A DNA stretch of 56,346 nt, filler included, from Bipalium vagum (taxonomy: Eukaryota), in the NCBI GenBank assembly GCA_037834085.1. It is 3 parts of 3 records of this genome, joined end to end, with 100 filler letters (N's around TTAATTAATTAA, not from the genome) between each part and the next. Parts side by side here need not be neighbours in the genome. Positions count along the whole stretch, not along the records: positions 17,129 to 39,700 come from JBBMKC010219687.1; 2 more parts are not named here. One strand, 5' to 3'. This document shows, piece by piece, positions 18,000 through 51,379 of the stretch. How positions within the stretch are numbered: position 1 is the stretch's first letter; every line of letters starts with the position of its first letter. A program made the position numbers and the translations under genes. The notes beneath the pieces were generated by a model. That model did no database searches. It was not told the origin of the DNA and was given only the letters and a program-made list of their open reading frames with translations.

Positions 18000-19538
18000 T
18001 TAATAGTTTTTCAACTGCCGGGACTTAAAAGTAAAATTCTTAATAGCGGAAAACCTAACTATACCTTCGTTTGCCAGAAGAGCCTTTTCATATTCCTGGT
18101 CACTTACTGCTTCGGCAAAACTGACTTCAAACTTTTGAAAGATGCTTGTAAAAAAAATAAAATATTCCATTCGAGCCAAAGATTCTCCGAGACATTGTCT
18201 TTTTCCTATTCCAAAAGGAATCAGTTCCTTTCGCGGAGTGTATCTTCTAATGCCCTGGCTGTCCTCTGAAAGAAATCGTTCTGGACTAAACTGCATAGGA
18301 CTCTCCCAGGTGAGAGGATCAATGTGACATGCCAATAGGTTTGTGAAGATAACAGAATTCTTTGGAATGAAATACCCGTCTACACTAGAATCGTCTAGAG
18401 TTCTGTGGGGAAGTCCTAAAGGCAGCACTGAGCTCAATCGGACTATTTCATCCATTACAGCCTGAGTGTAATGAAGCTCAACCTTGTCATTCATAACCAC
18501 TGTCCTTTCTTCTCCAATTTTGTCAACAATCTCAGCATGAACCTTTTCCTGGATCTCTGGATATCTCGAGAGAAACAGACAGGCCCAGCCGAGAGTTGTT
18601 GAAGTGGTCTCATAACCTCCACTAAACAATTCCAAAATAACACGAATTAACTGCCATTCTGTGAAGGTATCTTCTGTTCCGGTTTTCTTTCTCATTTCGT
18701 GCTGCTTGAGTAGAAAGCGATCAATTAGGTCTTCTCCTTCAGAATTGAGATCTAAACATTTTGAGTGTTTCTGAATTTCCATACGGAAAATCTGATAAAC
18801 CTCATCAAACCTTGTCACTCTATCGGAAAAGAACCCTGTAAATTTTTGAAACAGCCAAGAACTATCCAAAGCGGGGAACATTGTGAAAAACAGTCGACCA
18901 TAATCCCTTTCTCTTGCCTGATCATGTACAAGTCTATCAATCAGCATGATTCTGGGATCACCCTTGATGAATCGCTTGCTCATTATGAACTTTGAAATGA
19001 TGTTTCCTGTGGAATATAAAATCAGCTTCGAAAAGTTTAAGCTTTTCCCATCAAACTTTTCAAGTTCGTCCAATAAATATTGGCATTCGTTTTGAATGAT
19101 TTCCATTGCTCTCGATTTACCCAGACCGAAATCACGTAGTACTGTTAAGACAAAAGAGCGCTGTTTAGCCCAGTGCTCTCCGTCTTTGAATACTATTCCG
19201 GAATCATGGGTGAACTGTTTGATCATCTCAAGCTGCAATCTACCAGAGAACGTATCCCCGTCTTCCTTTACCGCCTTTTTCATAATATCATAATTGCATA
19301 TGACGACAACATCTCTCATTCCCATTTTTATCTTGAATAAGGGCCCATGTATTGCACTCAAGTTTTTTAAATGCCAAGCAAGAGAAATCTTTACTCCATG
19401 CATCATACCAATTATAGGAAGACCCTTCTCACAAGGAAGCTCTCTCAGTCCTTGAGGCAAGCTTGAACTACTACCTGCGAATTTGTAATATACATAAATC
19501 AGCAGCACTACAAGGCCTAATGTTATTAGTGAAATCAT
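18000..19538 (-). CDS. Cytochrome P450, CYP2-clan-like, intronless, 512 aa
   Basis: N-terminal TM anchor, WAKQR (WxxxR), GGYETT (I-helix), EIVR (ExxR), PERF, FGIGKRQCLG heme-binding motif; uninterrupted ORF. Confidence 0.96.
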   Translation of the reverse strand: MISLITLGLVVLLIYVYYKFAGSSSSLPQGLRELPCEKGLPIIGMMHGVKISLAWHLKNLSAIHGPLFKIKMGMRDVVVICNYDIMKKAVKEDGDTFSGRLQLEMIKQFTHDSGIVFKDGEHWAKQRSFVLTVLRDFGLGKSRAMEIIQNECQYLLDELEKFDGKSLNFSKLILYSTGNIISKFIMSKRFIKGDPRIMLIDRLVHDQARERDYGRLFFTMFPALDSSWLFQKFTGFFSDRVTRFDEVYQIFRMEIQKHSKCLDLNSEGEDLIDRFLLKQHEMRKKTGTEDTFTEWQLIRVILELFSGGYETTSTTLGWACLFLSRYPEIQEKVHAEIVDKIGEERTVVMNDKVELHYTQAVMDEIVRLSSVLPLGLPHRTLDDSSVDGYFIPKNSVIFTNLLACHIDPLTWESPMQFSPERFLSEDSQGIRRYTPRKELIPFGIGKRQCLGESLARMEYFIFFTSIFQKFEVSFAEAVSDQEYEKALLANEGIVRFSAIKNFTFKSRQLKNY

Positions 19539-19699
19539 AACAAAATATAAAGTTCAGTCAAACGATTAAAGTTGGTTAATAAATACACATAAATACACAA
19601 GTCCATTGGTATAAATATACAAAGTTTAAGAGACTTTAGTGCACTTGACCAATAGCAGTCCAACATCTCTCATTGTGGTGATTGTGGTGTCCATGCAAT

Positions 19700-21646: not shown

Positions 21647-24600
21647 TCACGGCGCGAAGTATTTTACAGCCAAGTAAATGACGTAGCCAATCAGAAGCAT
21701 TATATGTCCGGCAAACTTCAATCGCCTCCAACACTCAATCGAATGTTTCATACTGTATCCCTGACAAAAGAAATTCAATAATTCGTTTACATTCAACTCA
21801 ATTTTACTTGACTGTGGCCAACACTATCGTCAAACATTGCAGCGATATAAGCCAAGAAGACCATACCCATCAACGTGAATGTAATGTTGAAGAACAGAGA
21901 AATGATATGATATTTCTGAAATGAAGTGATAATACAAGCACGTGTTTTATATTACTAATTAAAGGGGTCTTTAACTCTACCATGCGTTAAATATTGTCAA
22001 TCAAAACAGAACAATCAAGCTGCACTACAAGCACTCATGCAACACACTTTCCACTACAAAAAATAATCACACACCGTTGATTACAGTATCATATTTCAAG
22101 TGAGAAAATTGTTTTTGCAATTTACTTTTCTCATAGTACATTTATTGTGAATTTTGTTTATCTAACCATCAGACATACAAAAAGCTTCCATTTCACAGCA
22201 CTCTTTTTTCTTGTCACATCTCAAGTTTAATACATTACTCGTAACACATTGTAGATTGTACTGAAAAAGATTAATGACCATTGTGTTTTACTACTGAAAA
22301 GAACATTTGCTGTAACTTCAACCCCAACGTTAACTTTGACAAATTCTATCCTGCTTCAGCCACTCAATCCATACTTTTCAACAATCGATCTCAAAAGTTA
22401 TTCCCTTTCAACTAGTCATAACTAAAGTTTTAGTTTAATGTTTATTGATTTTAAATCAATTTTTATCTGAAAATCGATTTACCTTGAAAAATATTATCAC
22501 TAAATCGGCAATAAAAACTAATATTTAGTTTAACCATAAACTCAGATGTGCATTGTGATTTTATATCAATTTTGTTAAGTCTTTAAATCGATTTCTCAAG
22601 AAAATATCAAAATTGAATATCAATAGATAAAAAAATATTTCAAAATCATGCAAAAGAAAAACATTAATTTTCAACCTTAAACATTCCATAATATCGATTT
22701 ATGTATACTATATCTGGATTTATCATCGATTTTTAATCAATTGTATTTTGTGTCGTTGAACCTAAAATTGTAATCCGTTCCCATTTCTCTCTACGTTCAC
22801 GAGTTTCATTCGTTTCTCGATTTCCCATGTAAAGATTGATATTACAAATTAAATACTGATCAATTTCATTGATTTTTTCTGTGTTGCGATATGATATTTT
22901 AATTTAAATAAGACAGTCATTTTGAAAATAAATCGATACGAAGCCCATTTTTTATTGCTCAGTATCAATTTCAAAAATGAGACTCACCTTGAACTTGTGA
23001 CTACACGAGTCGTGACAAGGTCGGGCCTTGATGCACGAATTGGTGGTTTTTGCCAGCTGAGATCGCAAAACTGAAATCCGAAAGATAATAAATATAAAAA
23101 AATTGGGAGAAAAGTCAATTAATAATAATAATCGATCCGATATAACCGACAAAAACGAACCGTATTCAACGTAACTGTATACACCCAACGAAATCAATAT
23201 AGCCGATAAAGCGAAATTGAAACCCTGAACCAAAAAATTGATAAGTTTTTTCTTTCAATTTCCCCAATGAAACAATCAATAATCTCACGTGGAGCAAAGA
23301 GCTGGCGACAAAGGTCAACAAGATGGCAAAAAATCGTCCGAATCTTCGACAAGGGAAAAACACGTCTATTACAAATTTAGGCAACAAAATAGAAAATTTA
23401 ATAAAAATTGATAAATTTACAATTTTTCAACCAGAAATGCATAGGCAGATTCCATAGGGTGACCACATCGATCAACGAACGTGGAATTTCGATCGATAAC
23501 GGATGAACAATTGGTTGAAACCTTTCGGGAATGAAAAAATCCAATATTATTTTCGCATCATAGAAAAATAACTAAATCGATTCAAGACCAAAGGTAAATG
23601 AAGCAACAAATCGATAACGGATGTCACTTTAAAAATCTATATTGAATAATAATCAATAAATAAATATTATTTAATTATAAATATTTTTAATCAATAAAAA
23701 TAATCGATAATAATGTTACTATTCATCACAAAATCGATAGAATAAAATTGAGAAATAAAAAATTTTTTAAAAAATCAATAAAATTTACTTGAAATCGATT
23801 TTATTCTTTTTATGATCGCCACCATTGTCATCATCGCTAAGCCCCACCGAGTTCATGTAGCCAATGGACAGAAAGCTAATGAAATAATGGCTGAATCGGA
23901 ACGATTGTGCGTCCTGGTACGCTCGAACCCATCTGCGAAAAATAAAATCCATCAATCGATTTTTACTTTTAGTAATTAGCTTTTCATTGAAAAAATTCAA
24001 TTGAGATCAAAGAATTTTTAAGTTATTTTTTAAAAAATCAATAAATAATAATCGATTAAACAAGTGAAGTCATTGTCCCACTTTGATTGGGGCAGAGCGG
24101 AGAAAATGAATTGGCTGCCGCAAGTGGAAAACAAAAGGCAGATGAGGCCGAGGCCAAAATTTTTCACTGTCAGTAATATCGATCGATAGATCGCCGTCGC
24201 CTGAAAAAGAAAAATATTTAATTATCGACGATCGATAAATTAGTCAATTGACTGAAACACGCACGGAGAAGTTTAATGAGCACCGACTCCAGCGATCGTA
24301 CAATCGGTAATCAAACCACGGTCCGTAAAGAATGGAGCACGGCGTCAGGAGGTACCCGACCAATTTGACAGCGGGAACCCCTTGTAGACTGGCTCGATCG
24401 ATATCGATCGATATGGAGATGATTTTCATTAGTAGAATCATGAAGGGACCTGAACGGAAAATCGATAAGGAACGAAAAGAAGGATGAAAGGAAAAGGAAA
24501 ATATTGTCTATCATAGTTTACCTCTTAGAGAGTGCCATTTGACAGGATCGACATGGAATTCACTTTAAATAAAGACAAAAAACAGAAAAATCAATCAATG

Positions 24601-25125
24601 CATTTAAAGAAGATACTTAAAGACGATATAAATCGCCGACAGCGCCAAAACACTCAAAAGACATGACGATTTCCCTTGGGCAGCACCGATTACACAAACC
24701 GCAGTGAGGCCGAATAAGAGAATGCTACCAGTTCCGCTTTCAAAGGTGTCCAGGAGTAAATAAATTCCTGTTTGGAAAAATGATCAAATTATGACTAAAA
24801 CAGGCACTAGTTGAAATTGAAACAACCTCCGATTGAATTGAGACAACATATGAGAATATCTTTGAAAAATTGAATCCCTAATTAATAAATAATACACTAC
24901 ATGTGGATGATATTAATTGGACATGTTACCTTTAATCAACTGTAAACAAGTGGTTATTAAATTGATTATAAAACATATTAAGATTCCTTTATAATTACTA
25001 AGAATCACTTGGCTGACAACTGACGGAGCACAGTCTTTTAAATAATATAAAATGTAATTAAAATAATCTTTAAAAAACAAAAGGCTGTTTTCATAATCAT
25101 CATGATCCGTTAAACTGATATCCAT
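21647..25125 (-). CDS. porcn: Porcupine, Wnt O-palmitoleoyltransferase (MBOAT), 13 exons, ~477 aa. Exons 25125-24930, 24877-24827, 24767-24617, 24562-24522, 24449-24265, 24200-24082, 23932-23789, 23521-23421, 23365-23289, 23224-23161, 23070-22988, 21915-21808, 21760-21647
   Basis: All 12 introns are GT-AG and phase-consistent (1434 nt CDS). Motifs: [71 protein letters not shown]|GFNF (catalytic His), SCIKARPCHDSCSH (Cys/His cluster), GYSMKHSIECWRRL. Confidence 0.95.
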
Positions 25126-27529: not shown

Positions 27530-29092
27530 TTATATATTTATTAAGAATTTCCGAATTCTATCTAGAGAAAATTTCAAGAAATTATTTTTAATTTCTGAAG
27601 TTCCAGTGCCAACATTATTGAGAATCATAGACGATATTTTCATTCTCATTGTGTTCTGAATATTGATTATATTTTGTTCTATTTCCACTATCATCATATT
27701 ATCCTCTACATTTCCTCGATCAATGCTTTTATCATGTTTGGCAATCTTGATGAAGATGTGATTGTAGTTGGTGAAAAAGAACAAACTTAAATCACAAATA
27801 TTTAAAAATAGTCTTTTTTCATGAGCGACTAAGTTACTGCTAAGAGCAGAGTCCGTGTCAATAAAATATTGACTAAACATTTCTTGATTTATAAGGCATA
27901 GGCGACCATAGTGTCTCCAGAAGATGGTTTGGTCCACATAAAACTTTTCTATCTCAGGTTGTGCTAACATTGTTTCCAACCTGGCTAGTAAAAAATCATG
28001 AAATTCTTTGATCCAGTCGAGAAATTTTGTGAAAGTACTGTACTGGTTATTTAATATACTATTCAAGTCAGGTCCAACAATATTGGAATATTGAAGGACT
28101 TGCTTATGAAAAGGACAAGAGATTTGTAAGCAGCCAAATCTTCGAAAGCAAAATTTACAAACTTTGTGTTCGCAAGAGGACATAGGACTTTGTGACTCTA
28201 ATCCAATATGAATATGACAGATAAGACACTGTTTCTCTGAATCTATAAACATCTCTGAAAAGTCTTCCTCACAGCTTTGTACTACTTTTAATAATGTATA
28301 TCTGAAAAGTTCCAAACTTTTCGTTATCAAAATTCTGAGGCTTAGTATATTGTTAAGTGACCTGTAACACTGTTTGTAATTAACTTCATCTAAATCTTTC
28401 ATTACTATTTCATTTATATTTGGAATCTGGATTAAAATTTTATATATGAACGAATAGTACGAATTGATCAGCTGTAATAACTGGAACAATATTTCCAACT
28501 TGCTTAAAATGAAACAAAATCCATAAGTGGTTTCTCTAGCCAAAGCGGTTTTTATGAAATCCGACGTTTTGTCTAAAGCGGACGATATCTTCCTCTCATA
28601 TTTTCTAACAGGTATAGCGCAATACTTTTTAAGTTCCGGCATGGAAGCAATTAATTGATATAATTCTACGACACCTTTGAAACTACCTTCTTCTTCTGCA
28701 TTCATCAAAGGTGTTCTCATAAAACTGAGACCAAGGTCATTTAACGACAATAGACCGGATTTCAGATTGCACAGGTTATTTTGGAACAACTTAAATATTA
28801 CTTTTAAAGGTTGAAGAGAGTTTTTAATATAAGATAAAATTTCCATGTTTAATTCCGGATGAAGAAAAGCAGCTATTAACATAGTTTTAATTTTTTCACT
28901 TGGCTTCTCAACGATTGAAAGATGGGTTATCTTAATTCGATCCATAGGACAAATTTGCTTATTATGCAACCAGTTTTCCAGACAATTTGAGCAAAATGTA
29001 TGTTTACACTTGGTTGTGGTTACCTGGTCCTCAGGTTTTATATTTTCAAAACAAATGGGACAATTGATCGATAGGTCACTGTTTGAATCCAT
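27530..29092 (-). CDS. Intronless 520-aa protein with two RING-finger-like domains (putative E3 ligase)
   Basis: CPIC-x12-CKHTFCSNC-x10-CPMD at the N-terminus and CLIC-x14-CEHKVCKFC-x10-CPFH near aa 290; 1.56-kb uninterrupted ORF in AT-rich DNA. Confidence 0.85.
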   Translation of the reverse strand: MDSNSDLSINCPICFENIKPEDQVTTTKCKHTFCSNCLENWLHNKQICPMDRIKITHLSIVEKPSEKIKTMLIAAFLHPELNMEILSYIKNSLQPLKVIFKLFQNNLCNLKSGLLSLNDLGLSFMRTPLMNAEEEGSFKGVVELYQLIASMPELKKYCAIPVRKYERKISSALDKTSDFIKTALARETTYGFCFILSKLEILFQLLQLINSYYSFIYKILIQIPNINEIVMKDLDEVNYKQCYRSLNNILSLRILITKSLELFRYTLLKVVQSCEEDFSEMFIDSEKQCLICHIHIGLESQSPMSSCEHKVCKFCFRRFGCLQISCPFHKQVLQYSNIVGPDLNSILNNQYSTFTKFLDWIKEFHDFLLARLETMLAQPEIEKFYVDQTIFWRHYGRLCLINQEMFSQYFIDTDSALSSNLVAHEKRLFLNICDLSLFFFTNYNHIFIKIAKHDKSIDRGNVEDNMMIVEIEQNIINIQNTMRMKISSMILNNVGTGTSEIKNNFLKFSLDRIRKFLINI

Positions 29093-30510: not shown

Positions 30511-32179
30511 TCTATACGAAGTACAATTCTTTATTAAGTACGACTTTTTAAATTTTAAAATCAATATTATTCTCTTTTGATTATAGTGGTTGATGAATTA
30601 GTGGGAGCATCAAAATTCACATTTTAAATTAATTTCACATTTTAATCACTTTGTTGTCATCTAAAATAATAATTTAAATTTTTATAATTAGCGTATTAAA
30701 TTACTTTTAATTTGAATATACAATGGGACCTACTGATTCCTAGACGATCACAGGGATCCTTTGTCGCGCAGAGTGAGAGTGATTTTCTTTGTGATATAAA
30801 GTTTTTCATCGTTTTTTAATTGTTTATTTCATAATTAATAAATATATTTTGATTATTTTAGTGTAATTCTCTGGATTTCAGCCATTTATTGTGATTTACT
30901 GATAACTGATTGATTTTTAGTGTATTGTGCGATTAGTGTAGTGTGTGTATTATTTTGATTCACTAACGCGAATAACAGTAAAGTTTTCGTAGTTATTTAG
31001 GTTTAACGAATACGTTATCAACAAAGTGAGGAGTTAGAGAAGTTTGATCTGAAAGTTACATATTCGAATAAGGTAAATAATAACAAAGATAAGGTTAGAA
31101 ATTGTTTGAACAAGAAGTTTGGAAAGTAAAATAAAGAGTTAAAGTTTTGAAAAGAAGTAAGTAATATTTGTTGTGAGTTTATTGTGAAATCTGGGAAGAT
31201 TTCCGGAGTGCAATTGACTTTTTAAGATGCAATCAAATAATTTTTTATAGAAGATAGAAGTCTGTTTTAATCACGAGAGACTTCAAGGGTGTCGATTGTC
31301 GTTTATCTTTCAGGTATTTAGATAATTTTAAAGCGAGCGAAATCAGTTTGGGAATATACGAGTCACCAGCATTTTGGACTGTTTTATCATATACTCTATT
31401 TTTGACTTGATTATATTCGTTTGCCATGTTGTTTCCTTAATAAAATCTTGTCTTATATTTACTGTTTTCTGCGTTAAGAAGTAAACTATAATTGATATAA
31501 TTTAGAGTGAGATAGAGAGCATAAAAAGTTTGGTTAATACTTTTTTTTAAATATTAACAATTCTACCATTCAAATTATGTTGATGACCTTTAAAATCAGG
31601 CTACACCAAGCTCCAAGTTAAGTTTTCCTGATAGTAAAGTATTGTATACACTGAATAGTAAAAACTTTCCTTTATTAAAGCCTAAAATTATTACATTTCT
31701 TAATATAAAGGTACTATCATTCTGCATTTTGAAGATACTTTATTGAAAATAAAAGAAATTAAATATACACAATGATTAAAATTAAAAAAATCAATTAAAT
31801 CAATTTTTAATCTGTAAATTAATCAATTTTTCCATTAGAATACTTAACAGAAATTCTTGCTGGTAATTTTATTAAAATGAATCGTATCATTGTTAAATTG
31901 AAGATAAACTTTTCAATATCAATGTGACTGAAACTGAAAGAGTGTTTGTTTAATCGAAGTCATAAAATAAATTATTCGTAACAAATATATATTCCTTATA
32001 AAGGTAAGTTCGTCTCTATCAAAGATATATCACATTATTAAACCTATTAATTTTATTCCATTTAAAAATCGTTTATTCAGATTGTCAACTCTTGAAAACT
32101 TATAAAACTCGCTGACATTTTAATATCCGTATTTTTAAAATCATCGATAAAAACTAATGTTTCTATTGTTTTCAGAAAA

Positions 32180-32413
32180 ATGAAAATCAACGTTACATAT
32201 GGTGACAAGATATTCACCTTTGAAGTGGACAAGGAGCAATCGGCTTTAGAATTGAAAAAGCTCGTTGCTCAAAAAACCGGAGTGTCCACTGCCGACATCA
32301 TGTTGCAGTTCAACGGCATTTACATGATCGACGATAAAAAGCTCAGTAAATACGATATTGAGTGTAATTCCAACATAATTATGGTGGCTAACATTCGAGG
32401 GGGTTCTAAGTAA
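32180..32413 (+). CDS. Stand-alone ubiquitin-like protein (77 aa) ending IRGG-SK
   Basis: Manual alignment to ubiquitin gives about 23/76 identities with one gap (TFEV, LKK, TGV, LQFNG, LSKYDI, RGG). Acceptor TTTTCAG lies just upstream of AAAAATG, suggesting a 5'UTR intron. Confidence 0.85.
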   Translation: MKINVTYGDKIFTFEVDKEQSALELKKLVAQKTGVSTADIMLQFNGIYMIDDKKLSKYDIECNSNIIMVANIRGGSK

Positions 32414-33075
32414 CGAAGATGATAGTGAAAACGTTGAGAAATAGATAATTAACTTGTTCAGTGTTATCTTTGTTATTTATTTATGTAATGGTATAAAATT
32501 TCACTTAACAAGTACCAAATCTTTTTTGTCTATTTAAAATATTTAATTAAAGTCAAATACAGATTATAAATCATTTTATTTATGTTTTAAGTATAACTCA
32601 TTGTTCTTAACTTAGAGGATCATTGTAATAGGGATATTATTGCATTTGATAAATAAAGTGTTTAATTAGTCTGGTTTTTTGCAAACTATTTTGAAATGGT
32701 GAACTTTGATTATTGCTCTGATTCCGGAATTTATTATTTTGAATCTCGTGCCTAGGCTTTAACCAGTAAGTCTTATAAACCGTTTTGTAAAGTTTTATGT
32801 AATGAGAACTGTTTGTCAGACTTTGGCAGCCAAAGATTTCGTTGCGACATTAAAGTATAAAATCTAGTAGATAGCGAAAAAGCTTCAATTGTATCAAATG
32901 AATTGTGTCAATTGATAAAATTAAATTAATAATTGGGAATCGATATTTTGTATATTGGATTTTTAAAAAAAATCATTTATTTAGGTATTGGAATGTCATG
33001 TATTCAAGCCCTGGTGCTACAGAATAAATGATTAATAAATTATTCAAAAAAATTTAGGAGTTTAATTTTTAAAGA

Positions 33076-33546
33076 TCTTCGGTGCTTCTGAAATCCGAGG
33101 TATTGTTTAAACATCCAAATCATCAGTTGATTTTTGAATTGAAATTTTGTGTTCGAATTGTGAAATCAGCTGTCTTAGAATTTGGTGAATTTGAAAAGAA
33201 ATTAAGCATCTGTAACGTTTCAAAAGAATTTTATGCACAAGAAGAAGTTAATCTATGTGAAGATGTTGGTATCCACAAAATCAGAAAATCTCGAAGTCAT
33301 ATCATCAGTAACCACGAAAAATACATGGAGACTTCAAATGAATCAGACCCGGAAAGAATAAGGGCAGCAGTCAACCTCCGACAGCCATTTAATCTCTCGC
33401 TAGTCACCAAGTTCTCTTGGAGCACGAGAATGATTTTTGTAGAAAATCACAATTACCTTGATCCAAAATTGTTCTTGAGATCCATAACGTTTTCAAAATT
33501 TGATTTTCGCCAACATATTTGTAACCTTCTCAATTTTGTAATATAA
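33076..33546 (+). CDS. Unidentified ~155-codon ORF, possibly a terminal exon
   Basis: Follows the acceptor-like TTTTAAAG; stop overlaps AATAAA; no recognisable domain. Confidence 0.3.
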   Translation, partial: SSVLLKSEVLFKHPNHQLIFELKFCVRIVKSAVLEFGEFEKKLSICNVSKEFYAQEEVNLCEDVGIHKIRKSRSHIISNHEKYMETSNESDPERIRAAVNLRQPFNLSLVTKFSWSTRMIFVENHNYLDPKLFLRSITFSKFDFRQHICNLLNFVI

Positions 33547-34189: not shown

Positions 34190-34474
34190 TATGAAAAAGC
34201 AAGCTGGTGATTTTATGCACTAGGTGGGATTAGAAGGGGATTAGTTATCATGATTTACTTTCAAGTGGTCAAACTATCAGTGCGGAGAGGTATTGTGGTC
34301 AGCTAGAAAAATTGAGGGTGATGCTGAAGAAACGAATGAAATTTGTGAACAAAAATATATGGTCTTTCACCAGGATAACAATAAGTCACATTACAATTTT
34401 GAGACCAAACGCTAACTAAAGCATCTTAGTTTGGAAGCGAAGCAGTACCCATTGTACTGACCAGATGTAACTTC
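34190..34474 (+). mobile_element. Mariner transposase remnant
   Basis: YHDLLSSGQTISAERYCGQLEKL, FHQDNNKSH, PLY*PDV. Confidence 0.75.
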
Positions 34475-35460: not shown

Positions 35461-36426
35461 ATGTTATCGAATTCTCAGTTTGATAATATTTATAAAATAA
35501 TTTCTGTTTTGAGCCTAATTGTTTTATTATCGGGTTTAATTGGATGTTTTCTCATATTTTATATTCTCTATAAAGACACGACTATTCGACAATTTTCCAG
35601 GTTGCTATTTTTTCAGCAAAACGTTTTTGACACCTTAGTGATGATCATTTCTGGAATGCAGCATACCTTGTGGTCTGTTACCCAAAACTACTTTTTGTTA
35701 GACAATCTAGACCTGTGTCATTTATTTATTATTATGGAAGGTCTTTTTACTCATGGTGCGACTGTAACACTTTGCCTAATGTCCGTTGAACGGTTTATCA
35801 TTGTCACTTGGCCGACAAATGTCTATTTCAGGTCTTTGAAACTGAGGCATAATGTGATATTATTTTTTATCACAATCATTTTTTCTGTAGTTCTTATCAT
35901 CTATCCTTTTGTGAAAAATACTATCACCATGCCGTATTGCTTCTATTTAGTCGGTGTATCAGAGAGCTTCGGTTTTCTTGTTTATAGCGCCTTTCTGCCA
36001 TTCTTAGTATTATTCGTAACGACCATAAAAATTAGTTATGTACTTTGGAAAAGCTCTCGTCAGCAAAATAAGGTTTCCACAATAAATTCCGTGACATCTA
36101 ACGTAAAGAGCAATAAAAGTTCCAATTCACCTGTGTCAACATCCATTATAAAAGTCGTCATTCTTACCTCTGTCTATTACTCTGTTTGCACCGTACCATA
36201 CAGCTTCACCAGGTTCCTGTATATATTCAAACCGACTCATATGAGCCTAGAGACAATCTCATTGATCCCATTATTTGGGAAATTATTACTGATATCTAAC
36301 AGCTCCACAAGATTCATTTTCTACATTATCGGAAGTAAAAGATTCCAGATGATCATTAAATCGTTATTCGTAAAATCAAAAAATAATAATAATTCATCAA
36401 TCCACACCGTCACTCAAACCCTATGA
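35461..36426 (+). CDS. Rhodopsin-class 7TM GPCR (orphan, peptide-receptor-like), intronless, 321 aa
   Basis: Seven hydrophobic segments, TM3 Cys (DLCHL), MSVERF (DRY variant), CTVPY in TM6, NSSTRFIFY (NPxxY variant), RF in helix 8. First ATG is at 35461. Confidence 0.9.
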   Translation: MLSNSQFDNIYKIISVLSLIVLLSGLIGCFLIFYILYKDTTIRQFSRLLFFQQNVFDTLVMIISGMQHTLWSVTQNYFLLDNLDLCHLFIIMEGLFTHGATVTLCLMSVERFIIVTWPTNVYFRSLKLRHNVILFFITIIFSVVLIIYPFVKNTITMPYCFYLVGVSESFGFLVYSAFLPFLVLFVTTIKISYVLWKSSRQQNKVSTINSVTSNVKSNKSSNSPVSTSIIKVVILTSVYYSVCTVPYSFTRFLYIFKPTHMSLETISLIPLFGKLLLISNSSTRFIFYIIGSKRFQMIIKSLFVKSKNNNNSSIHTVTQTL

Positions 36427-37084: not shown

Positions 37085-37920
37085 AATTTAAAACATTCTT
37101 ATTACAAAAATGCACCATTAGAATCAATGCTGTGATAAAAGTTTGTTGATTCTAGTTTGAAAAAACCTTGATTTTTGGGCCCAATGAAGTCTTTGGCATT
37201 GATTTCTGGACTCTAATCTTCAAGAAGTGATAAAGATGTTTGAAAAATTGAAAATCTGTGGGAGCCAAGTCCGATGATTTTGGTTGGTGAGGAAGAGTTT
37301 CATATCATAAGATGAGGGCGTGCATTGCATGTATTGAAGGAGTATGGGACCATTCCGACAAAGGCCGCTGGTTTTGAATCAGTATTTTATACATCATCTC
37401 CATTTGCTCACAGCGCGATGTCCCAGTGATTGTTTTGCCAGTTTTCATGAAAGAAAAGTGAATAACTTCTGCAACTGACAACCATACAGTAGCCATGAAC
37501 TTTTTTGAATGAAGATTCATTTTTGGGAATTTCTTGGGGGATTCATAAGCTGATAAGTATTGCGCAGAACATTTGCGGTTATCATAAAAAATTCACTTTT
37601 CATCATAAGTAATGATATGATCCAATAAGGAAATGATCAACGGAATGTCTTCTGAGAAGAGATGTTGCTATCCCTAATCTTTTCATATGGATTTCCGTAA
37701 GATTATGTGATATCCATTTATTCATTTTCTTGACCTTGCCAATCGCAGTCAGGTGTTCGAAGGCCGTTGATTGGGAAACGTTTATCTTTGTTGCTATATT
37801 TGATACAATTTGCCTTGGGTCTTCCTGGATCGTCAACAACAATACAAAGCGCCCGGGCTTTTCTTTATTCTCAAGAAATTCATTTCCACTTCGGAAATTC
37901 TGGAACCATCTCTGTACTGT
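37085..37920 (-). mobile_element. Mariner transposase pseudogene
   Basis: TVQRWFQNFRSG, KWISHNLTE, IFYDN, MATVW, PHQPKSSDLAPTDFQFF; stops and frameshifts. Confidence 0.9.
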
Positions 37921-38721
37921 GCACTTAAAGTATCACCCCCACTTCAACGGGTGGTTTAAACAAATGACAAAAATGTATAGATGATTGCACTAAACATTTG
38001 GAAAGGAAATGATAAATAATAATAATATTATTTAATGATATTATCTATTTTTTACCAATTTGATTTTATATCTGTTTGGAGATACTAAATAGGTGTAGAC
38101 ACCGTGAACAAATAAAGTTCTACTGAGTGGTAACTCTTATCAAGGTAATTTCAAGAATATTTTTCAATTAGATACGCCAGTCAATGACCGGATTGCTCAT
38201 TTGAGTGGCAGGGGCAAAAACTATAAATTAGAGTAAAAATCCATTATAATGGCCACAGAGTAATTTTAATGCTAAACTAGTTGGAAATTTGTTGAGGAGA
38301 GACGAAAGACGATTTTTTCTTAAATTTAATTTTGCGAAGCTAGAAGAGACAAGTGAAGATTGTTGTATTTAAATCCGGAATGATAGTCAAATTTGTTGCA
38401 AAGAAGATTGAGATTGGAGCTGAATTGAAGAAGAATATTAAAGAACATTTCAAATTGTTTCCAAGTTCATGCACATGTTATCGAATGATATGCAGTCAAG
38501 GTGTTTACTGACGGCCCAGTTAATTCTTATATTCATCCTTACATACACAATGATTTTATTTAACATTCAATCGATTGGTTGCTGTTTTGTTGTGTTCACT
38601 GAGAACTGTTTCTTATTGTGATTGTCATATCAAAAAATGATTACATCCGATTTGATTTTTGTTATGATAACTAATAGTTAAGGAGTCAGATTAAAATGTG
38701 CACTATTGTGTTAACTGTTAC

Positions 38722-39612
38722 TATTGGCTTGGCAAAAAATTTCGTGTGCTTTTTAATATTGGAATTTGTAAATTAATTTTTCATAAATTAATCATTCAGT
38801 TGTTGTTTAAATAATATAATAGTTTCACGCGATAATTGAAATATCGTTATGCAAGATTAAAAACTGCATTTTCATTATATTTTGTTGTTTTATTTTGAAA
38901 AAGGTAAGTATCATATTATTTATAAATATTATATTGATTTTAAAAAGGTAAGAGAGTCTCGGATGTAAATAGGAAAATATTCAAAGTATATGGAGATGAT
39001 GTTTTATCAGTACGAGTATGCCAAAAATGGTTCGTCAAATTCGATATGAGCGATGAATCCCACTCTGGATGCCCATCTCACATTGATCTAAACGATATTG
39101 AGTCTATTACCGAAAGGAATTCATCTAACACGTTTGGGAAATCGCAACGGTCCTAAAGACATCACATACAACAGCAGAAAGAACTCTGCATAATCTGGGA
39201 TTTGTTTCGCGACTCAATGTCTGGGTACCGCATAAATTAACGAGGCCAATTTATTGGCACTTATATTAATATGTGATTCACAGCTGAAACTTCAAGAGAA
39301 CCATCCAGGGATGAAAAGTGGGTTGTCTATTACAATGTGGTTTGCAAAAGGCCGTGCTTTCTGTTTGGTGGAATTTTAAAGGTATAATTTATTACGAGGT
39401 GTTTTCATCTTGCCAATCGATTAATTCGGATGTGTACTGCTCCAAATAGACAAAGGTGAACAATGCATTCCACGAAAGGGTCCAAGACAATACCAACACG
39501 ACAATGGCAGGTCTCATATATCTTTGGCCACCCGGAACAAATTATCGGCCATAAGATGCGATGTTTCGCCTCATCCTCCATACTTACAGGACACGGGTTC
39601 TACCGATTATCA
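38722..39612 (+). mobile_element. Mariner transposase pseudogene with 5' terminus
   Basis: TATTGGCTTGGCAAAAAATTTCG start; VCQKWFVKF, VWVPHKLTE, DEKWVVYYN, HPPYLQDTGSTDY. Confidence 0.88.
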
Positions 39613-39802: not shown

Positions 39803-40390
39803 AAATTAAATCTGGTCTCTAGAATGACAGATGGTAAAAATATTAATATTAATTTTTTGAATAGAAACTGTATAGAACTAAATTTAACAGAAGGTACAAC
39901 ACAAACCTTACAAATATATAATATACCTAATATTCCAATTTATTTATTTATTGCTTTTAGAGAAGCAGATTTTGATTATACAAAATAATAGTTTTTTATT
40001 CAAGATAAAATTAAATTGTTACAAGTTCAACTTTCTGATTCATTATATCCTATAAAACCAATAAAATTTGAAAAACGTTATAATAGTGAAACTTATTTGA
40101 ATTATGTAAATGCTTGTAAATAATTTAATAACTATCCATAATTAAGTTTATTAGAATTTCAAAATTTATATTCCATATTTTGTTTTGATTTAACGGATCA
40201 AGCAGAAAATTTATGTATCAATGGAACAAAAATTACTTTGCTTATAGAAAAAGATAATGATTTTAAAGGAATTATGAATTGTGTTTTATTAAGTGAGAAA
40301 TTTATTGAAATAAAACTTGAAGGTGGAAAGATGATTAATTTTGAAGTTAAAGCAAAAATAGATCAAATTTCAAAAAAAATCTTTTTCAAT
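39803..40390 (+). pseudogene. Polinton major capsid protein C-terminal fragment
   Basis: PIYLFIAF..QVQLSDSLYP..EFQNLYSIFCFDLT resembles the C-terminal Y..F.FDL signature of Polinton MCPs; in-frame stops. Confidence 0.65.
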
Positions 40391-41864
40391 TTTATATTTT
40401 TATATAATTATTAAATCATATAGTAATTATTAAATTTTTCTAATATTGTTTTATTGCGCTTTTTACGATATATTTTTTTCTTTTTTAGTAATATACAAAC
40501 AATTTTTTTATTAATCAACTTGTATATTTTTTGTAAATATTTTTTTAGTATAGGTATACAAATAAATATTTTTTTGATTTCATATATTAATCCAATTTGA
40601 AAATAAAAATCTTTTTATTTAGTTTTTTGATTCAATAAAAAAATATTTGTTAATATAGGTATACTAAAAAATATTTTGTAATTTGTCAAGTTATTAGGTG
40701 AGTTACATTTTTTATTTTTTTTATTAAAAAATGGTAGATTATTATTTTAGTAAATATTGTAATAAATATATTTCAAAAAATAATAAATGGAATTATGAAA
40801 AAACTAAAATACATATTGAAAAGTAAGTGTAAGTAAGGAAGTAAATAGAAAGTAAGTAATGTAAGTAAGGAAGCAAGTATTCTTAGTAAGGAAGTAAGTA
40901 ATCTAAGTGATGTGAAAATAGCAGATGATAAATTAAGTATTGCAATAAATGATTCTTTAATAAATAAATTAAACAATGAAAAAAAAGAAAAACTAATGTA
41001 AAAATCTTTATAAAAATCTTAATAAAGATAAAGATGAAAAGAAAAAAAAATAGGAGAAGCTAAAATTAATATTCATGAAGAAAATTATGAAAAAATAAAA
41101 TTAGAAATACAAAATTTTAAAAATATTATAAAAAAAATGAAGAAAAACTTAAACAAGTTAATAATTTAGAACTTAATTTAAACCAAAAAGAAAATATTGG
41201 GGATAAATTAGAAAATTTTTTTAATAATTATAAAAGAGATAATGATTTACAAAAAAATTATGAAAACTTATGTATTAAAACTGAACAATTGGAAAATTTA
41301 GAATCTAAAATATCTATTGAAACAGAAATTAAAAAATATAAAAAAAGAAATTTATTGTCTTAAAGGAGGATTAAATAAGACTGAAGAACTTATGAAAGTA
41401 ATGAACACGAGTTTTAATTTTAAATATGAAAAAAACGATTGGAAATTTGAAGAAAGAAAGTTTCTTAGAAATTGAAAAATATAAAAATTAAGTTGAAAGA
41501 TTACAAAAAATAATATTAAATACTCATGGACAAATTGATAGAATACATCAAACAGAATTTAAAGGAAAATCTATTGCAGTACAAACAGAAATTACTCGAA
41601 CAAAATTTATAAAGATATATTATGAAAATAAAAAATTATTCAAAGAAAAAAATAAAAAATTGAGGAGATGAAAGCGAACAATGCTCTTATGAAACAAAGT
41701 TTCATAGAAAAAGATAAAGAAATTTACAAAAAATTATCAAGTGAAAGAATGAAAGAAACCAACAAACCTTCATTTTGGATCATTAGATACTATGATTATT
41801 TCACAACATTTCAGTATTATTTTGTAAATAATAAACTAATTAGAGATGATTTAAAAATAAGATA

Positions 41865-42427
41865 TTAGATTGTCCAGTATGAAATTGCGGATTTTCAATA
41901 TTATTTTTAAAAAGTCAAAAACAGCTTGTAAATAAATTTTTTTAATTAACATATTTCCATTCGCTTTTGACACACTGTTGCCATCGGGACAAAACCTTTT
42001 AAATTCCTTTTTGACTTCAATTGGGCTTCATTTAAGAGGGACTTGGGTCTTCCGCGGTCTTGGTTTTGGAGATTTAGGTCCCCGTCTCGAAATTTTTTGA
42101 ACCATATCTATGTTGTTCTTTTGCTTATACTACTTTCACCTCATGCAGAATTAATGTTTCGAGTTGATTCTGATGCATTGTGGTTCAGTTTGAACTTGTA
42201 TAATATGAATACTCGAATTTGTTGATCAACCATGTCTAGTAAAGAACGATAAAAAAACTTTTACTTTAAATTAATATGCTTACTTTTATATTTATATAAA
42301 AGTTTGAAAGTTACTCTTTAATTTGGTATATATAAACAAACAATTTATTGTTAACGTTTGTGATTAACTTTAATTTGAAAATAAATATAAAATTAATAAA
42401 TCCGCAATTTCATACTGAACAACCTAA
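41865..42427 (-). mobile_element. Internally deleted mariner with both TIRs and TA TSD
   Basis: TA|TTAGATTGTCCAGTATGAAATTGCGGA ... TCCGCAATTTCATACTGAACAACCTAA|TA; minus-strand IRVFILYKFKLNHNASESTRNINSA and RGRPK. Confidence 0.9.
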
Positions 42428-42429
42428 TA

Positions 42430-44510
42430 TAATTGAATATGTTCAGTTCTTTATCCATAAAATGCTTCTTTTGGTTTTAGTTTAGATAATTCTGAATCAG
42501 TTTTAAAATTTTTAAAATCAGGATTTTCTAAAGGCTTTTCATATTCGCATTCCCATAATTCTATAACTTCTAATTTTAAATTTGTATCTTTAAAATATTT
42601 TATAATATTATTCTTTTTTTCTAAAGTTCGATTATTTAAACATTCCATTGTTTTATTTCCTCTATGTCATATTTCTTTTTTATCATAACATTTAGGGCAG
42701 CCATAAAAATAGCAACCATTAAATTCATAGATATAATGAATTTTAAAAGTTTGATCATAATAAAATCCGTCAACTTTATATGTTTTGGAAGCTTTGCTTC
42801 CAAGAGCTTCGCTTGTATTATTAACTCTAATTGTTTTTTCTCCTCCTTTGCATGTTGAATTTTTATATTATCAATTTTACTTAACTATTCTAACCAATGA
42901 ATACATTTATAATAATATATATCTTCAAAATTACTTAATCTCGGTATTCCAATTTTTTCATTATTTATCACGGACATAAATATGTTTGTAAAATTTGTGC
43001 TATTGTCATATGTTGAAAAGGATCCATATTTAAAACGTTGTCATTTGAAATATTTATGTTTAAAAGAAATCTCTATAAATTAAAAAACCTTTAGTTAAGA
43101 TCATAACATCTGTTAAACAATAATAAAACATTTGATTTTGAAAATTAAAAACTTCATTCTTTTTTTATTTTTTCATCATACAATTGTCTTAATTTTTTTT
43201 CTTTATTATTATCACTCATATAACTATAACCATAACATTCTAAATCTGGACATTTACCAATGTAATTTTGATTTTTTGTTGCATTGAAATAATGTGGACA
43301 ATATCCTTTGGAATCTTTAAAACCAAATATTTCTGGAAAAGCTTTATGGACATAAAGTAAAACTTATTGAATCTACAAATCTTATATTAAAATGTTTTAT
43401 TTGCATGTATGTGATTTTACTTCCTGACCTAATTTTTTCTACTGGCAATTTTGTTTGAATTAACAAACCTAATATTGTGTGGTTATCATATCCTTTTTGC
43501 ATAATGTGCTATTAAAGTATATATTTCAAAATCTTTACAAATAAAGAATTTACAAAATGTATCATTTAAAGAAATTGAGTCTTCAATTATTATTTCTTCA
43601 AAAAATCTATATTATCTAAAATATTTTCAATTGTTAAATTTTCTAATTTTCAGTAATAAGTTTAAAATGTGATATTATGTTTGTTTGTATTTTAAAATAT
43701 ATTTTTCTTTCTGAATCATAAGCAATTGCGTAATTCATTACATGATAACCAGCTGTTTCTTGTGTTCCTTCAAATTCAAAAAATATATTTATTACTTTGC
43801 TTAAATTTTCTTTCATTGTTTTTAAATAACATTTGTGATTATTGAATGGAGGTTTGTATTGTTCATTAAAAATTGGGCAATTCTTATTACCACACTTATG
43901 TTGACATGAATTAAAACATTCTTCATTAAAAATATCAAAAACTATTTTATATTTATAAGGTTTACAATTATCTATTTTACATTTATTACAATATTTTAAT
44001 GATTGTAAAAAAGCTATTATTTTTGTAATAGAAATAAAATGATGATTTTCTTGACCATAATAAATAAAAGTTTGTTTCTCAAATTGTTCATTTCCTCTAT
44101 ATAAAATAGAATTAGGTTGATTATTATTATGAGAATAAACTATAATTCTTATTTGTAAAAAAATTTCAAATTGTTTTAAATCACCAATATTATTTCCAGT
44201 TTCTTTAATTTCTACTTGAGCCATATTATGTAATTTTATTGCCCATTCTTCTTGAATTGGATCACCTCTTCTAATTTATCTAATTCTATTATAACGTTCT
44301 CCAAATTTTAAAAAGTTTTTGTTTTTAAAGTTTTCATAAGTTAAAGAAGTTATTATTGATCTTGCTAAACAAATTGTATCATTATTTTGAGTTATGTTAA
44401 TAGAATTCTGTACAAAATTTTGTAATATTAAATTTTTAGAATTACTTCTACTATAATTAACATAGTTTCTTTCTTTTCCAACTGGTATTGGTAAAAGTGA
44501 AAATTCAAAA
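42430..44510 (-). pseudogene. Polinton protein-primed family B DNA polymerase (N-terminal, exonuclease and insert regions; truncated)
   Basis: NDTICLARSI, FFEFEGTQ (ExoI-like), KGYD (ExoII), RFVDS, KGYCPHYFN, YCLTDV (ExoIII), DPF..TIA, VDGF..YEFNGCYFYGCPKCY, WECE, EAFYG*RTE. Confidence 0.9.
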
Positions 44511-45300
44511 ATTACAAATTTTGGCAATTATTATGGAATTTTGCATAACGTTTTGGTATAATTCAATTGAGATCATAGCGATTTGTTCCGAAATGTGGTC
44601 TTTGAGTTGTGTAATAGTTTTGGGTTGATTAATATAAACTATATCTTTTAGATATCTCCATAAGAAATAGTCTGGAGCCGTCAACTCGGCTTTGTTGCCC
44701 AAACTCAACAATTTTGTTTATTAAAAACACCTTCACTCAAGTGAAAATTACTTTCATCAGTCAATGATTTTTTTTCCAAAAATGAGGATCCGCAATTGAT
44801 CTTTCTAGCAACCAATTACAATAATTCAGGCGACTTTGATGGTCTGATTCTTTAAGCTTCATAACTACGTTAAGCTTATAGGCTTTCTTATGCAAATCTT
44901 CATGCATTATCTGCGAAAAACTGGATTTTGAGAGGTTTAATTCCTGTGCTCTATTGAGGTGCATTTATTGTCTTCAATACTCTCGCGTGTACTTGCAATA
45001 TTTTCAGGTATACGCACAGATCGAAGTCGTCCAGATTTTGGTCTGTCTGCTACCGAGCCAAATGCTTCAAAAGCATTAACCAGATTGTAAATTGTTTGTT
45101 TTGGTGGACATTTGTTTTTCCCAAATTTTGCATTTAATTTTTTAACGCTTACTGAATTTGAACTACGGCCGTGATAAAATATTTTGACAAGTTATGCCCG
45201 CTGTTGCATATTATAACGATCCAAAACTACAAGTCGAAAAATATCATCCTTTATGAGAACCGTTATAGATCCAGACGATTTAAAAGAATTGATTACTCAA
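44511..45300 (-). mobile_element. Tc1/mariner-superfamily transposase remnant nested in the Polinton
   Basis: RPKSGRLRSVRIPENI, DESNFHL, NKQN, ELTAPDYFLWRYLKDIVY (PDLTP.DFFLWGYLK type). Boundaries approximate. Confidence 0.85.
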
Positions 45301-45379
45301 GTACCCATACATGACGATATCAATTTAAGTAATTATTTTCTCGACTTGAGGCGATTTTGTAAAAAAAGTCTTAGCGACA

Positions 45380-45458
45380 TTTCTATATTTTTCTATATAT
45401 TTCTGAATAATTTTCTATATTTTTCTGAATAATTTTCTATATATTTTGAATAATTTTG
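45380..45458. repeat. Degenerate ~21-bp tandem repeat (TTTTCTATATATTTCTGAATAA-like) x3-4
   Basis: Directly visible. Confidence 0.7.
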
Positions 45459-47459
45459 TAACTCTAAATTTTTTCCAGAACAAAGTTACTATATTATTGT
45501 TTTAATATTTTAAAGTGAATCAAGGTTTGTTTATCAAATAACCAAAATTATTATTTTAATCATTTATTTATGTTATTGTTGATTAAAATTTGCATAAATA
45601 CTTGCTAAATATTTATAATTAAGGTATAAAATTATCAGATTATCTAAACTTATTTTAAATATTTGGTTTAAATTTAGGTTCTTAAAGAATCTTTATGGTT
45701 TCTCGTATGGCAATTCAGTGAAAACTGTTCACTATTTCATTTTCTATTATAGAATTGTAACCAACATATTTTTGGTAAGTATTTGTTATTTTCTATCAAA
45801 GAAATTTAGTTACTGAGATAAGAAAAAATTCTAATACTTGGTTTTTGAAGAATTATTGAAGGTTTTAATTTTGAAATAGGAAGTATATCCTTAGAAATTT
45901 CATAGCATAATATTCAAAATTTTAAGTTAATATTTAAGTTTTGTTTAGTATTTCGCTTTGATTAATTTTTTAATATAAAATTTAGATTAGAAATTTTGTT
46001 ATGTTTAGTTTACTTACCCCAGAGTTCATTTAAATAAAGAACTTAATTTATGATGAATTCTATAGATGTAATATTATCAATTCAATATGATTATTATTAC
46101 ACAATCAAATAATACTTAATGATATATGATTTTAGTATATTATAAGGTAATATTAATAATACGAGTAATATTTATTGTAATTATAAATTTTTAGCATAGG
46201 TCATATCGAGCATATTTTTGTTATGATTGAATATTATTAATATTAATAATCTGAGACAAATATTTAACAACATCGTTACTGTGCTCCTTACTAAGTTTAG
46301 TAGTCTTTATAAAAAAAACTATAATCAACCTAGCACAATAAGCTATTGTTTTTATGATAATATCTTAGCACAAGTGATCAGTCAGATATTTGTCAATAGA
46401 GCTTAGTTTCTTTTAGTAACAGCAACATTGAAATAATCAAAACAAATAAAAATGTACTTACATTGCAATTTTAAAAAAATCAAGCCCAATTTACGTTTTT
46501 CATGGTTGAATCCCACCAATTGTAAGTAGCTAAGTTGACTTTTGACTATAGCACAATCTTCTATAGACTAACATACTAACATCATAAATATTTAAAATTA
46601 TTATTTATTACAATATATTTTCTGTCAATTTTGAGATTTCAATTCTAGATGAATTTCATTTTATTTTGTTAAGTTTCTAAAGGTGGTTTTATATTATTAG
46701 GAAACTTAACACAAATATATGTTTGTCTGAAAGAATGGATGTTTATGTAACTCCGGGTCAAATATGCAAAATATGGTATTAAAATTAAATTAACTTACAC
46801 CAATTATGTTTCTAATTGATTCAAATATTCAATATTCCTTTTATTATAATAATTATATTTATTATCCATATTATCATGTATTTTTGTCAACTCGGTCAAA
46901 AAAGATACTTGATACATTTGACCGGTCAAAAAAGAGATTTGATAGTCATTTCATTAAGAAAACCGTTTTCATTATAGCACGCCCAAAAAATTATCAATCT
47001 CAAATCACCAATTATCTAGTTATTATCGCTGATCTATTTATTATTGACGAATATTGATGTTAACATTTTTTTATTCTTTGCTCTTCTAGTCAAATTTTAA
47101 GAATTCTCTTTAATCTTTTATCAATGGCCTTTGTATGAGTTTTTCTTAAATTATAGAAAAGTAATATTGATACCCACAAATGTTGTTAAGAAGAACAGAT
47201 TTATTTAATTAGATTTGAATTTTTTAAATGTTATATTTTTGTATAATTATGTGATGAATATTTTACTGAACAATATCTTTTAATACTCTTATGTAATAAT
47301 TATTTACTGCATAAATTTCCATCGCTCAGATTTATGAATATTAAATATTATAACATATAAGCTTTGTTTTAAAACATTTGTTTAAGTAAGTCATTATTGA
47401 TTATATTGATATACATTAAATCACAATTTATTTAAATTATCCGATTTATTTCAAGCAAT

Positions 47460-48790
47460 AATTATGGAAGATGATAAAATGCATATTCGCCACTACATGT
47501 TGTTCTTTTTCAATCAATGCAAAACATCTACCGAAGCAGCCAGATTAATTTACAAAACTTATAGTATTAAAACAATAGCCAAGGGCTCATGTCGAGAATA
47601 GTTAAGACTTTTTAGAAATGGTGATATTGATTAAAAGAATAGATTTGCAAGTTACTCAGCCACTAGAATTGTGTTCGGACGAGTTGGAAGCGTTTTTAAA
47701 AGAACATTCGACTCAATTGAGTGTAGACATGACGAGAAGACTGTATGATATGTTAATCATAGCAACGTACTTTGGCGGTTGAATCAGATGCGGTAAATCT
47801 GAAAGAAGGAAAAATGGATCACTCATGAACTATCACTCCTGCCACCATTTGTTTTTCGCTTCTTTGTAGACACGAACATTTCTTTTCTGTATAGAATTGT
47901 AACTGAAGACGAAAATATACATATGTATAAAGTTAAATAATTTTATGGGGTTAAGAATATCGAATTTGGTCGGTAAGTAACAACAAAATAATTTCAAATC
48001 AGAAGGCTTTATGGTGTGTAATTCGGAACAAATAAAACTCAAAAAATTTCAAAGTAATAATAAAATCGAACTTTAACAAATATGTTTATTTGTAAAAATT
48101 GGCGATTACAATTTATTTTACTAGGAAACTATTATCCTTATTATATATTTTTTATTAATATAATATAAGGCTAGTCAATGTTTTCTCAGATTAATTAATT
48201 TTTAAAAAAAAAATTTAATAATAAAAATAATAATTGTTAGTTTTTTTACAGGCTTTTGTTTTGCTGAGTTTCTTATTTTACATACACAAAAAGGAAACTG
48301 AATACAACACAATAGGTAAAGAATGATATTATTAAAATCACATAGAATGTTTAAAAAATCATTTATAAGGATAAAAAATTGTTTTTTCTTTTTGAGTCTC
48401 CATAGTATTATAATCTCAATTGCAAAAGATCATTGGTTAATCCTGGAAATATTTTTATTCACCAGGTCGTCCTGTTTATCCAGTGGGACATGACGGTGTG
48501 CTTTGTTATAAACTATTAAAACAATCTGAGGTTGTTGCTGTGGTCACCAATTGACATAGTTCAACGAGTTATTATTGCCGGACGATGATATTTTGCAAAG
48601 GCTACTGATCTATTTCATTCCATGCATCATAGTCTTTCTGATGTAAATTTTAGTAATTTTGAAGAGGTGCAGAAATTTATTGACAGTTCTATTCAAGCTT
48701 AAAGATTTTTTCCTCGGGGTTTATCATTTTTTGTATGAAAGATGGGAAAAAGCAGTTAATAATGATGGAAAATATTTTGATTAAATGTAC
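47460..48790 (+). mobile_element. Mariner fragments (N-terminal ~47465-47835, C-terminal ~48400-48785)
   Basis: KMHIRHYMLFFF..TEAARLI, KWITHEL; LFHSMHHSL, RWEKAVNNDGKYFD. Confidence 0.8.
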
Positions 48791-49200
48791 CATGTTATTT
48801 TTCTGTTATTTTTAACGTCATTTTTATTTTTACTACTGAGGTCATTTTCTGTATTTGCTTTTGTGTTTGACGTCATTACATTATGTTTAGCTCAAGTTTT
48901 CCCTTTTGTCTGGCGTCAACTCAACTTTTCTTTCTTATTTATTATTATTACTATTTTATTCATATTGTTAAGTTCCTAATAAAGATAAGTTCTTCACTCC
49001 CTCGTATGCGGATTTGTTTTAGGTCTTATTGAAAATATTAAATTTCCTGTGTCATTTAAAATTTTTATTGTTTCTGGATCTAAGCTTACTTCATAATAAT
49101 CTGTTTTTTCATATGCTGTCTTTCGATGATAGTAATTTTTATCATGAATCAACGCTTTTTCATTTTTTAACAAAATATAAAATTTTTGAAAAATACATTT

Positions 49201-49465
49201 TTACTCAAATGTTGATGGCAATATCTTTTTTGTTTCTAAATTTATAAAAAAATAATTATATTTTTTATTCATATAAAAATTAAATAAACAATCAAATTCC
49301 TCTTTTTCAATAAAAGCGGATAACATTTTTGAATAAATTTGAAACTTATCATTTTTAGAAATTTCAAATAAAATTAAAACCTTTACATTATTTCTTTTTG
49401 ATCTTAAAGGCAAATCAACAAAAGATTGTGATAAATATATTACTGAACAATTATTATGTCTTCCT
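49201..49465 (-). pseudogene. Polinton packaging ATPase, C-terminal half (split by insertion)
   Basis: GRHNNCSVIYLSQSFVDLPLRSKRNNVKVLILF, an A32/FtsK-type GRH..Q..R.N signature. Confidence 0.88.
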
Positions 49466-51300: not shown

Positions 51301-51379
51301 ATAGCATCACCATTAAGATCTCCAGTCGCTTCCTCCTCAAATTTATATATTTTTTCATTTTTAAACATTTGACAAACTT

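Follow-up and report, generated by a model that had tools for sequence, protein, structure and literature searches.

A divergent, probably stand-alone ubiquitin-like precursor with a retained di-glycine: a candidate lineage-restricted protein tag in the flatworm Bipalium vagum

Conjugated ubiquitin-like modifiers are few in animals, and the well-known lineage-restricted ones among them, ISG15 and FAT10, are vertebrate proteins. A short reading frame in the genome of the flatworm Bipalium vagum raises the question of whether it encodes a ubiquitin-like (Ubl) modifier outside the known families, and whether such a protein would be attached to targets at all. The frame was studied within a window of 56,346 nt (56 kb; the whole stretch of DNA that was analysed, from assembly GCA_037834085.1), in which tblastn identifies it as the sole ubiquitin-like frame. 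It runs unbroken from ATG to TAA. A length of 75 aa had been given for it in a preliminary description, which is right for the mature part up to the di-glycine and wrong for the whole ORF, which has 77 codons for amino acids and adds Ser-Lys after the di-glycine (Table 1).

Table 1. The Ubl gene and its predicted elements, in window positions.
Feature	Position	Strand	Basis
Ubiquitin-fold precursor, single coding exon, 77 aa (75-aa mature part + SK)	32180..32413	+	
Di-glycine codons G74 and G75; predicted cleavage and attachment site	32399..32404	+	sequence; also in P0183
Ser-Lys cap, predicted to be removable, and stop codon	32405..32413	+	sequence
Predicted 5'-UTR intron, 172 nt, ending 4 nt before the ATG	32004..32175	+	splice motifs
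Branch-point-like CTAAT inside the predicted intron	32154..32158	+	by eye; not hit by the combined branch/acceptor pattern
Possible poly(A) signal AATAAA, 239 nt past the stop	32652..32657	+	weak

The ubiquitin fold that had been called for this protein, and the identity to ubiquitin of about 30% estimated by eye, are both borne out. The Pfam ubiquitin profile (PF00240) matches the 77-aa protein with 48.4 bits (E 8e-13; cut-off 25.4), and a single-sequence AlphaFold2 model (mean pLDDT 74, below 50 in the final four residues) fits ubiquitin chains with TM 0.85–0.87, which together place the protein in the beta-grasp ubiquitin superfamily. Hydrophobic core positions are retained. Alignment of the 75-aa part with a ubiquitin repeat (P0240, residues 77–152) gives 24/75 identical residues (32%) with a single gap, located in the first loop near the N-terminus, where the Ubl protein is one residue shorter. 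The equivalents of ubiquitin R42, I44, K48, K63 and R72 are M41, Q43, I47, C62 and N71 in this alignment, precisely the M, Q, I, C and N called earlier, and the arginine at the equivalent of R74 is the sole survivor of the six. Nine lysines precede the di-glycine, which stands at the end of the fold ahead of a short cap, by sequence the arrangement of a type I modifier.

Composition and splice signals point to an intact gene. GC3s of the Ubl ORF is 38/73 (0.52), compared with 444/1303 (0.34) in three neighbouring genes (Fisher p 0.002) and with a flank GC of 0.23 (p 7e-8). The donor AG/GTAAGT of the predicted 5'-UTR intron occurs twice in the window, both strands counted, and its acceptor TTTTCAG 30 times, both motifs having been picked after inspecting the site. 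An in-frame stop sits immediately upstream of this donor, implying that the upstream exon is non-coding and that the ATG at 32180 is the start. On the 3' side, AATAAA occurs at 3.9 per kb per strand in the window. A 3713-nt contig from a public run, X1, spans 31016–33400 with 0 differences; as this run may be the source sample, the agreement shows only the absence of a local assembly error. Mean depth in run X1 across the ORF is 26.6–29.2 and among the contigs listed no second type covers it at 80% likeness, a hint against close paralogues. A 31821–33023 junction in one run X1 contig was dismissed as chance, one side being 24 letters long. At 31000–31085 lies the end of a high-copy repeat, onto which many diverged run X1 contigs pile up (summed depth 1632), and a 157-codon open frame at 33073–33546 (+), 660 nt downstream of the Ubl gene, has no match in Pfam, PHROGs or PDB. 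We consider it very probable that 32180–32413 is a real, functional gene, and rather likely, with somewhat less assurance, that it stands alone and that its di-glycine is under selection.

A protein search yielded 884 representatives at E 0.001 or better. Among the best 150, which reach down to 58.7 bits, only one is a single-domain protein, namely P0183 (86 aa, 73.8 bits), while the other 149 are multi-repeat proteins of 23–34% identity. P0183, a singleton on a 575-nt contig, aligns without gaps and shares 37 of 75 residues (~48–49%), a distance of about one change per site; its alignment score is 200, compared with at most 104 for the remaining 598 of 599 distinct domains from the best 150 proteins. 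At its C-terminus a GG stands at the ubiquitin position, followed by three residues unlike Ser-Lys; the preliminary description had staked its reading on the GG being conserved in orthologues, and in the one relative it is kept. Core identity to ubiquitin is 21/70 for the Ubl protein and 20/70 for P0183, and among the fetched domains with less than 40% core identity only 4 of 67 carry GG, a control that is biased and non-independent, as these are mostly multi-repeat proteins chosen by likeness to the query.

The shared residues also tell where the two proteins left ubiquitin. Of the 37, 20 are non-ubiquitin residues, including Q43, I47 and Y48 (I44>Q, K48>I and Q49>Y in ubiquitin numbering), suggesting that a new surface is being held rather than decaying. 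Judged from these two sequences, the sheet face used by ubiquitin readers is rebuilt and was then held in both. Position 72 had been given weight as an E1 selectivity gate; this part of the preliminary description is not supported, because the residue differs between the two (N in the Ubl protein, K in P0183) and so provides no family gate, the stable changes being those at 44, 48 and 49. Position 42 likewise varies (M/T), as does 74 (R/Q), and positions 68 and 70 read I/L and V/I. The distance of P0183 resembles that of triclad P450 homologues and would fit another triclad; the N-extension predicted for it may be an acceptor that was read through. The window itself has an intron-free CYP2-like cytochrome P450 at 18000–19553 (-), whose best named matches are Dugesia japonica P450s (54% and 52%), with 27–37% to named proteins of other animals, as would be expected if the gene comes from a triclad, which is likely.

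Further members were sought widely. A word-index search, confined to near lengths, returned 4 candidates with the protein alone, none of which held up, and 14 with a two-row profile, of which only P0183 did. None of 359 metagenome stretches and none of 134 stretches from viral contigs was confirmed as a relative; a degenerate pattern hit at least 119 metagenome loci, none of which contains a ubiquitin-like frame (the highest score, 28.5 bits, is due to the pattern itself). PHROGs matched 0 of 7 proteins and Rfam matched nowhere in the window. The clusters returned by the ESM Atlas, at 0.90–0.94 and some of them archaeal or fungal, are ubiquitin-like in a generic way only; they are leads and carry no sign of transfer. 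In a quick tree the pair shares an open group of four (support 88) with two rows on long branches, and with 52 of 71 branches open the tree does not settle its origin. Searches of an open-access library brought up no planarian protein of this kind, while supplements and planarian databases may annotate an orthologue; in the main text of a planarian RING screen (PMC8807557) the term 'ubiquitin-like' occurs 0 times.

Does the protein belong to a known family? A structure search with the model bears out the beta-grasp fold, with Z of 11–13 over 70–77 residues (rmsd ~2), and gives Z of 10–13, roughly tied, across the known families. Structure-based identity is 26–30% to ubiquitin chains, 27–28% to the ISG15 C-domain, 25% to the parkin Ubl, 22% to human FUBI, 20–21% to SUMO, 21% to Hub1 and 16–19% to FAT10; NEDD8 has no entry of its own in this comparison and may fall within ubiquitin's cluster. 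A plant domain, P0203, which we take to be RUB-type from its LALRGG end, is identical at 20/76 positions and scores 74, versus 85 for ubiquitin. By sequence and model, we see no clear orthologue among ubiquitin, FUBI, SUMO, FAT10, Hub1, ISG15 and plant NEDD8. The earlier claim that the protein matches none of Ub, NEDD8 and SUMO is supported by these comparisons, and the clear orthology to a known UBL that would have spoken against the earlier reading did not show in them; its label "lineage-specific" has a scope of two sequences, the Ubl protein and P0183.

Ubiquitin is the best natural match in both sequence and fold, and the equivalents of K11, K27 and K33 are retained (K10, K26 and K32); nonetheless, ubiquitin proper was rejected, as the gene is one repeat, about 70% of the residues are changed and, of I44, R42/R72/R74, K48 and K63, only R74 remains. 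With the last repeat of a polyubiquitin gene it shares the GG, the short cap, the intron-free coding part and the predicted 5'-UTR intron, so that it may be a one-repeat offshoot; a 5'-UTR intron is reported for the UbC gene (PMC3680475) and an extra residue past the last GG for polyubiquitin (PMC8122580). As in NEDD8/RUB, a few residues follow GG in what is probably a stand-alone type I precursor, residue 72 is not arginine and a lysine lies at ubiquitin position 54, yet the pair has N/K for Ala72 and no Ile44, and NEDD8/RUB was set aside on the comparison with the plant domain P0203. SUMO was rejected because there is no N-terminal extension and Rad60-SLD gives 17.1 bits, below the cut-off of 23.8; P0183 does exceed that cut-off (28.5 bits), but scores 46.3 on the ubiquitin profile. 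ISG15 and FAT10 are lineage-restricted modifiers that also have a polar patch replacing Ile44, whereas they are vertebrate proteins of two tandem ubiquitin domains, the Ubl protein has one, and ISG15 retains LRLRGG. UBL5/Hub1 is defined without the di-glycine that is present here. The diverged ubiquitins of Plasmodium and Giardia, as described in PMC10457151, are similarly copies freed from conservation with the fold retained, but they are ribosomal fusions, and those of the L40 type in Plasmodium retain the lysines and a hydrophobic patch, unlike the rebuilt patch of the Ubl protein.

Our best reading, to which we assign an even chance, is that the gene encodes a divergent stand-alone modifier precursor that, once trimmed, is attached by way of a UBA6/UBA1-type E1 and serves as a non-proteasomal tag; covalent attachment of the mature protein to targets, taken by itself, we regard as evenly poised. 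The gene would be transcribed and spliced in its 5' UTR, and the SK tail removed by a deubiquitinase-type protease. Activation would follow, for which a UBA6-like E1 or a diverged UBA1 copy seems likelier than ordinary UBA1 because residue 44 is polar as in FAT10 and ISG15, modifiers reported to have a polar patch and to be charged via UBA6 and UBA7 (PMC12355090). The E1s of NEDD8 and SUMO appear disfavoured, since they want Ala or Gln/Glu at 72: according to the same source NEDD8's E1 wants Ala72 and SUMO carries Gln/Glu there (PMC12355090). By analogy, ordinary UBA1 is possible, since a preprint (10.1101/2025.07.06.663376) reports that UBA1 charges FUBI, which is 36% like ubiquitin. UBA6 itself has been reported in octopus, sea urchin and an ascidian (PMC11864663, PMC10341865). 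Attachment would be single or through the K11/K27/K33 equivalents, and not through K48 or K63. With K48, K63 and I44 absent, the usual chains would not form and the usual readers would not bind; without binding by Ile44-patch readers, targets would not take the usual route to the proteasome, and the tag would require readers of its own for the Q43/I47/Y48 face. A bolder version, which strikes us as unlikely, is that planarians evolved their own conjugation pathway, an invertebrate counterpart of ISG15/FAT10, in which a dedicated or repurposed E1, a UBA6-like protein or a UBA1 duplicate, reads the Q43/I47/Y48 face and targets are tagged outside the ubiquitin and NEDD8 systems.

What speaks most strongly against conjugation is the damage to both interfaces that UBA1 is reported to contact on ubiquitin, the Ile44 patch and R42/R72/R74 (PMC12355090): the arginine triad reads M/N/R here and T/K/Q in P0183, so that R42, R72 and I44 are gone in both and R74 also in P0183. 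On account of these losses we retain, at a distinctly lower probability, a functional but unattached protein, either a non-covalent binder like Hub1/UBL5 or a decoy for a deubiquitinase or an E1; the GG would then be a relic or else a site for a protease. Established modifiers hold the residues before GG tightly, whereas the four preceding it here, A-N-I-R in the Ubl protein and S-K-L-Q in P0183, differ at 4 of 4 positions. The N-terminal half of the protein finds its nearest match, weakly (E 0.03), in the non-conjugated Ubl of parkin, and with ~48–49% of all positions identical, any two chosen sites would both be kept in roughly one case in four, which tempers the kept GG. This reading must nevertheless explain why both proteins place a di-glycine exactly where ubiquitin has it and follow it with a short cap, when GG is rare in the equally diverged domains above and UBL5/Hub1 is described as having none (PMC8431670).

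A retained GG would be expected of a cleavable fusion exon no less than of a conjugated protein, and we next weigh the rather improbable case that the ORF is the ubiquitin-like half of FUBI-S30 or of a diverged Ub-S27a/L40, either as an exon spliced at the GG or as an orphaned half. FUBI shares several features: length and divergence from ubiquitin are similar, the 75 residues and short first loop recall it, GG is present and K48 and K63 are absent. A survey of FAU genes (PMC4515611) places the most conserved intron between the ubiquitin-like part and S30, gives intron lengths of 25–3339 bp and describes FUBI as poorly conserved with GG retained; ribosome-fused ubiquitins are also reported to diverge in protists (PMC10457151), and the elevated GC3 fits a ribosomal gene. 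The second Gly codon, GGT, offers a phase-1 GT at 32403, another GT lies at 32410, and the G-K after the first Gly of P0183 could, from its protein sequence, be a read-through GTAAG donor. However, the GT at 32403, with TCTA after it, makes a poor donor, the identity to human FUBI is below that to ubiquitin, and the preprint (10.1101/2025.07.06.663376) gives human FUBI one lysine, against the lysine-rich Ubl protein. S30, S27a and L40 motifs are absent from both strands of the 56 kb, 24 kb of it downstream, in line with the earlier statement that there is no S30 fusion; the scope of this result is introns that are no longer than 24 kb and do not cross the scaffold gap at 39701. The downstream stretch instead includes a GPCR gene and transposon remnants. 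Pfam, run on 64 of the 73 plus-strand frames of at least 25 aa up to the gap (the 9 over the GPCR being excluded), finds only transposase pieces and one sub-threshold match, while the 175 frames past the gap were checked by motif only.

Least probable of all is that the ORF is a ubiquitin duplicate drifting fast because selection has relaxed, or a pseudogene of recent origin; the 70% of changed residues might point that way, but this reading sits poorly with the lack of stops and frameshifts, the gapless alignment to a relative so distant, GC3s far above the flanks, near-perfect splice signals upstream of the ATG and the retained core.

Other genes share the window, and nothing connects them to the Ubl gene. 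An intron-free RING gene at 27530–29092 (-), 3 kb away, encodes 520 aa with an N-terminal RING (44 bits) and a weak RING-like stretch at 289–336; it has no exact sequence match in the protein collection and, from its sequence, is a candidate lineage-specific E3. A single-exon rhodopsin-family GPCR of 321 aa (7tm_1, 44.7 bits) lies at 35461–36426 (+), and exons of porcupine, the Wnt O-acyltransferase (MBOAT), at ~23785–24783 (-) (PDB match E 2e-4, MBOAT E 6e-4). Broken mariner-type transposase remnants occupy 34234–34416, 37603–37932 and 38944–39446 (Transposase_1, HTH_48; the middle one a weak HTH match). RhoGEF-PH exons at 1983–11020 (+) (RhoGEF E 4e-8, PH E 0.003) belong to a gene that we presume to be FARP-like. 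Past the gap, 40142–54236 contains several broken frames, those tested having no Pfam, PHROGs or PDB match, which in our view resemble Polinton/Maverick genes (polymerase, packaging ATPase, capsid); inverted duplications pair 49466–49718 with 50874–51139 and 50457–50649 with 53050–53238.

Taken from its sequence, the Ubl gene is probably real and functional, divergent and stand-alone, with one relative in which the GG is kept and the surface rebuilt, and it fits no known modifier; its product is likely a lineage-restricted protein tag in the flatworm. Should the protein be unattached, or a FUBI offshoot, it would add only modestly to the large number of diverged proteins with a ubiquitin fold. 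If our best reading is true, it would add a stand-alone modifier with a rebuilt face in an invertebrate regeneration model amenable to RNAi, and would show a route from a ubiquitin copy to a new tag. As UBA6 is reported to be present in animals without FAT10 (PMC10341865), the protein would also be a candidate substrate for invertebrate UBA6.
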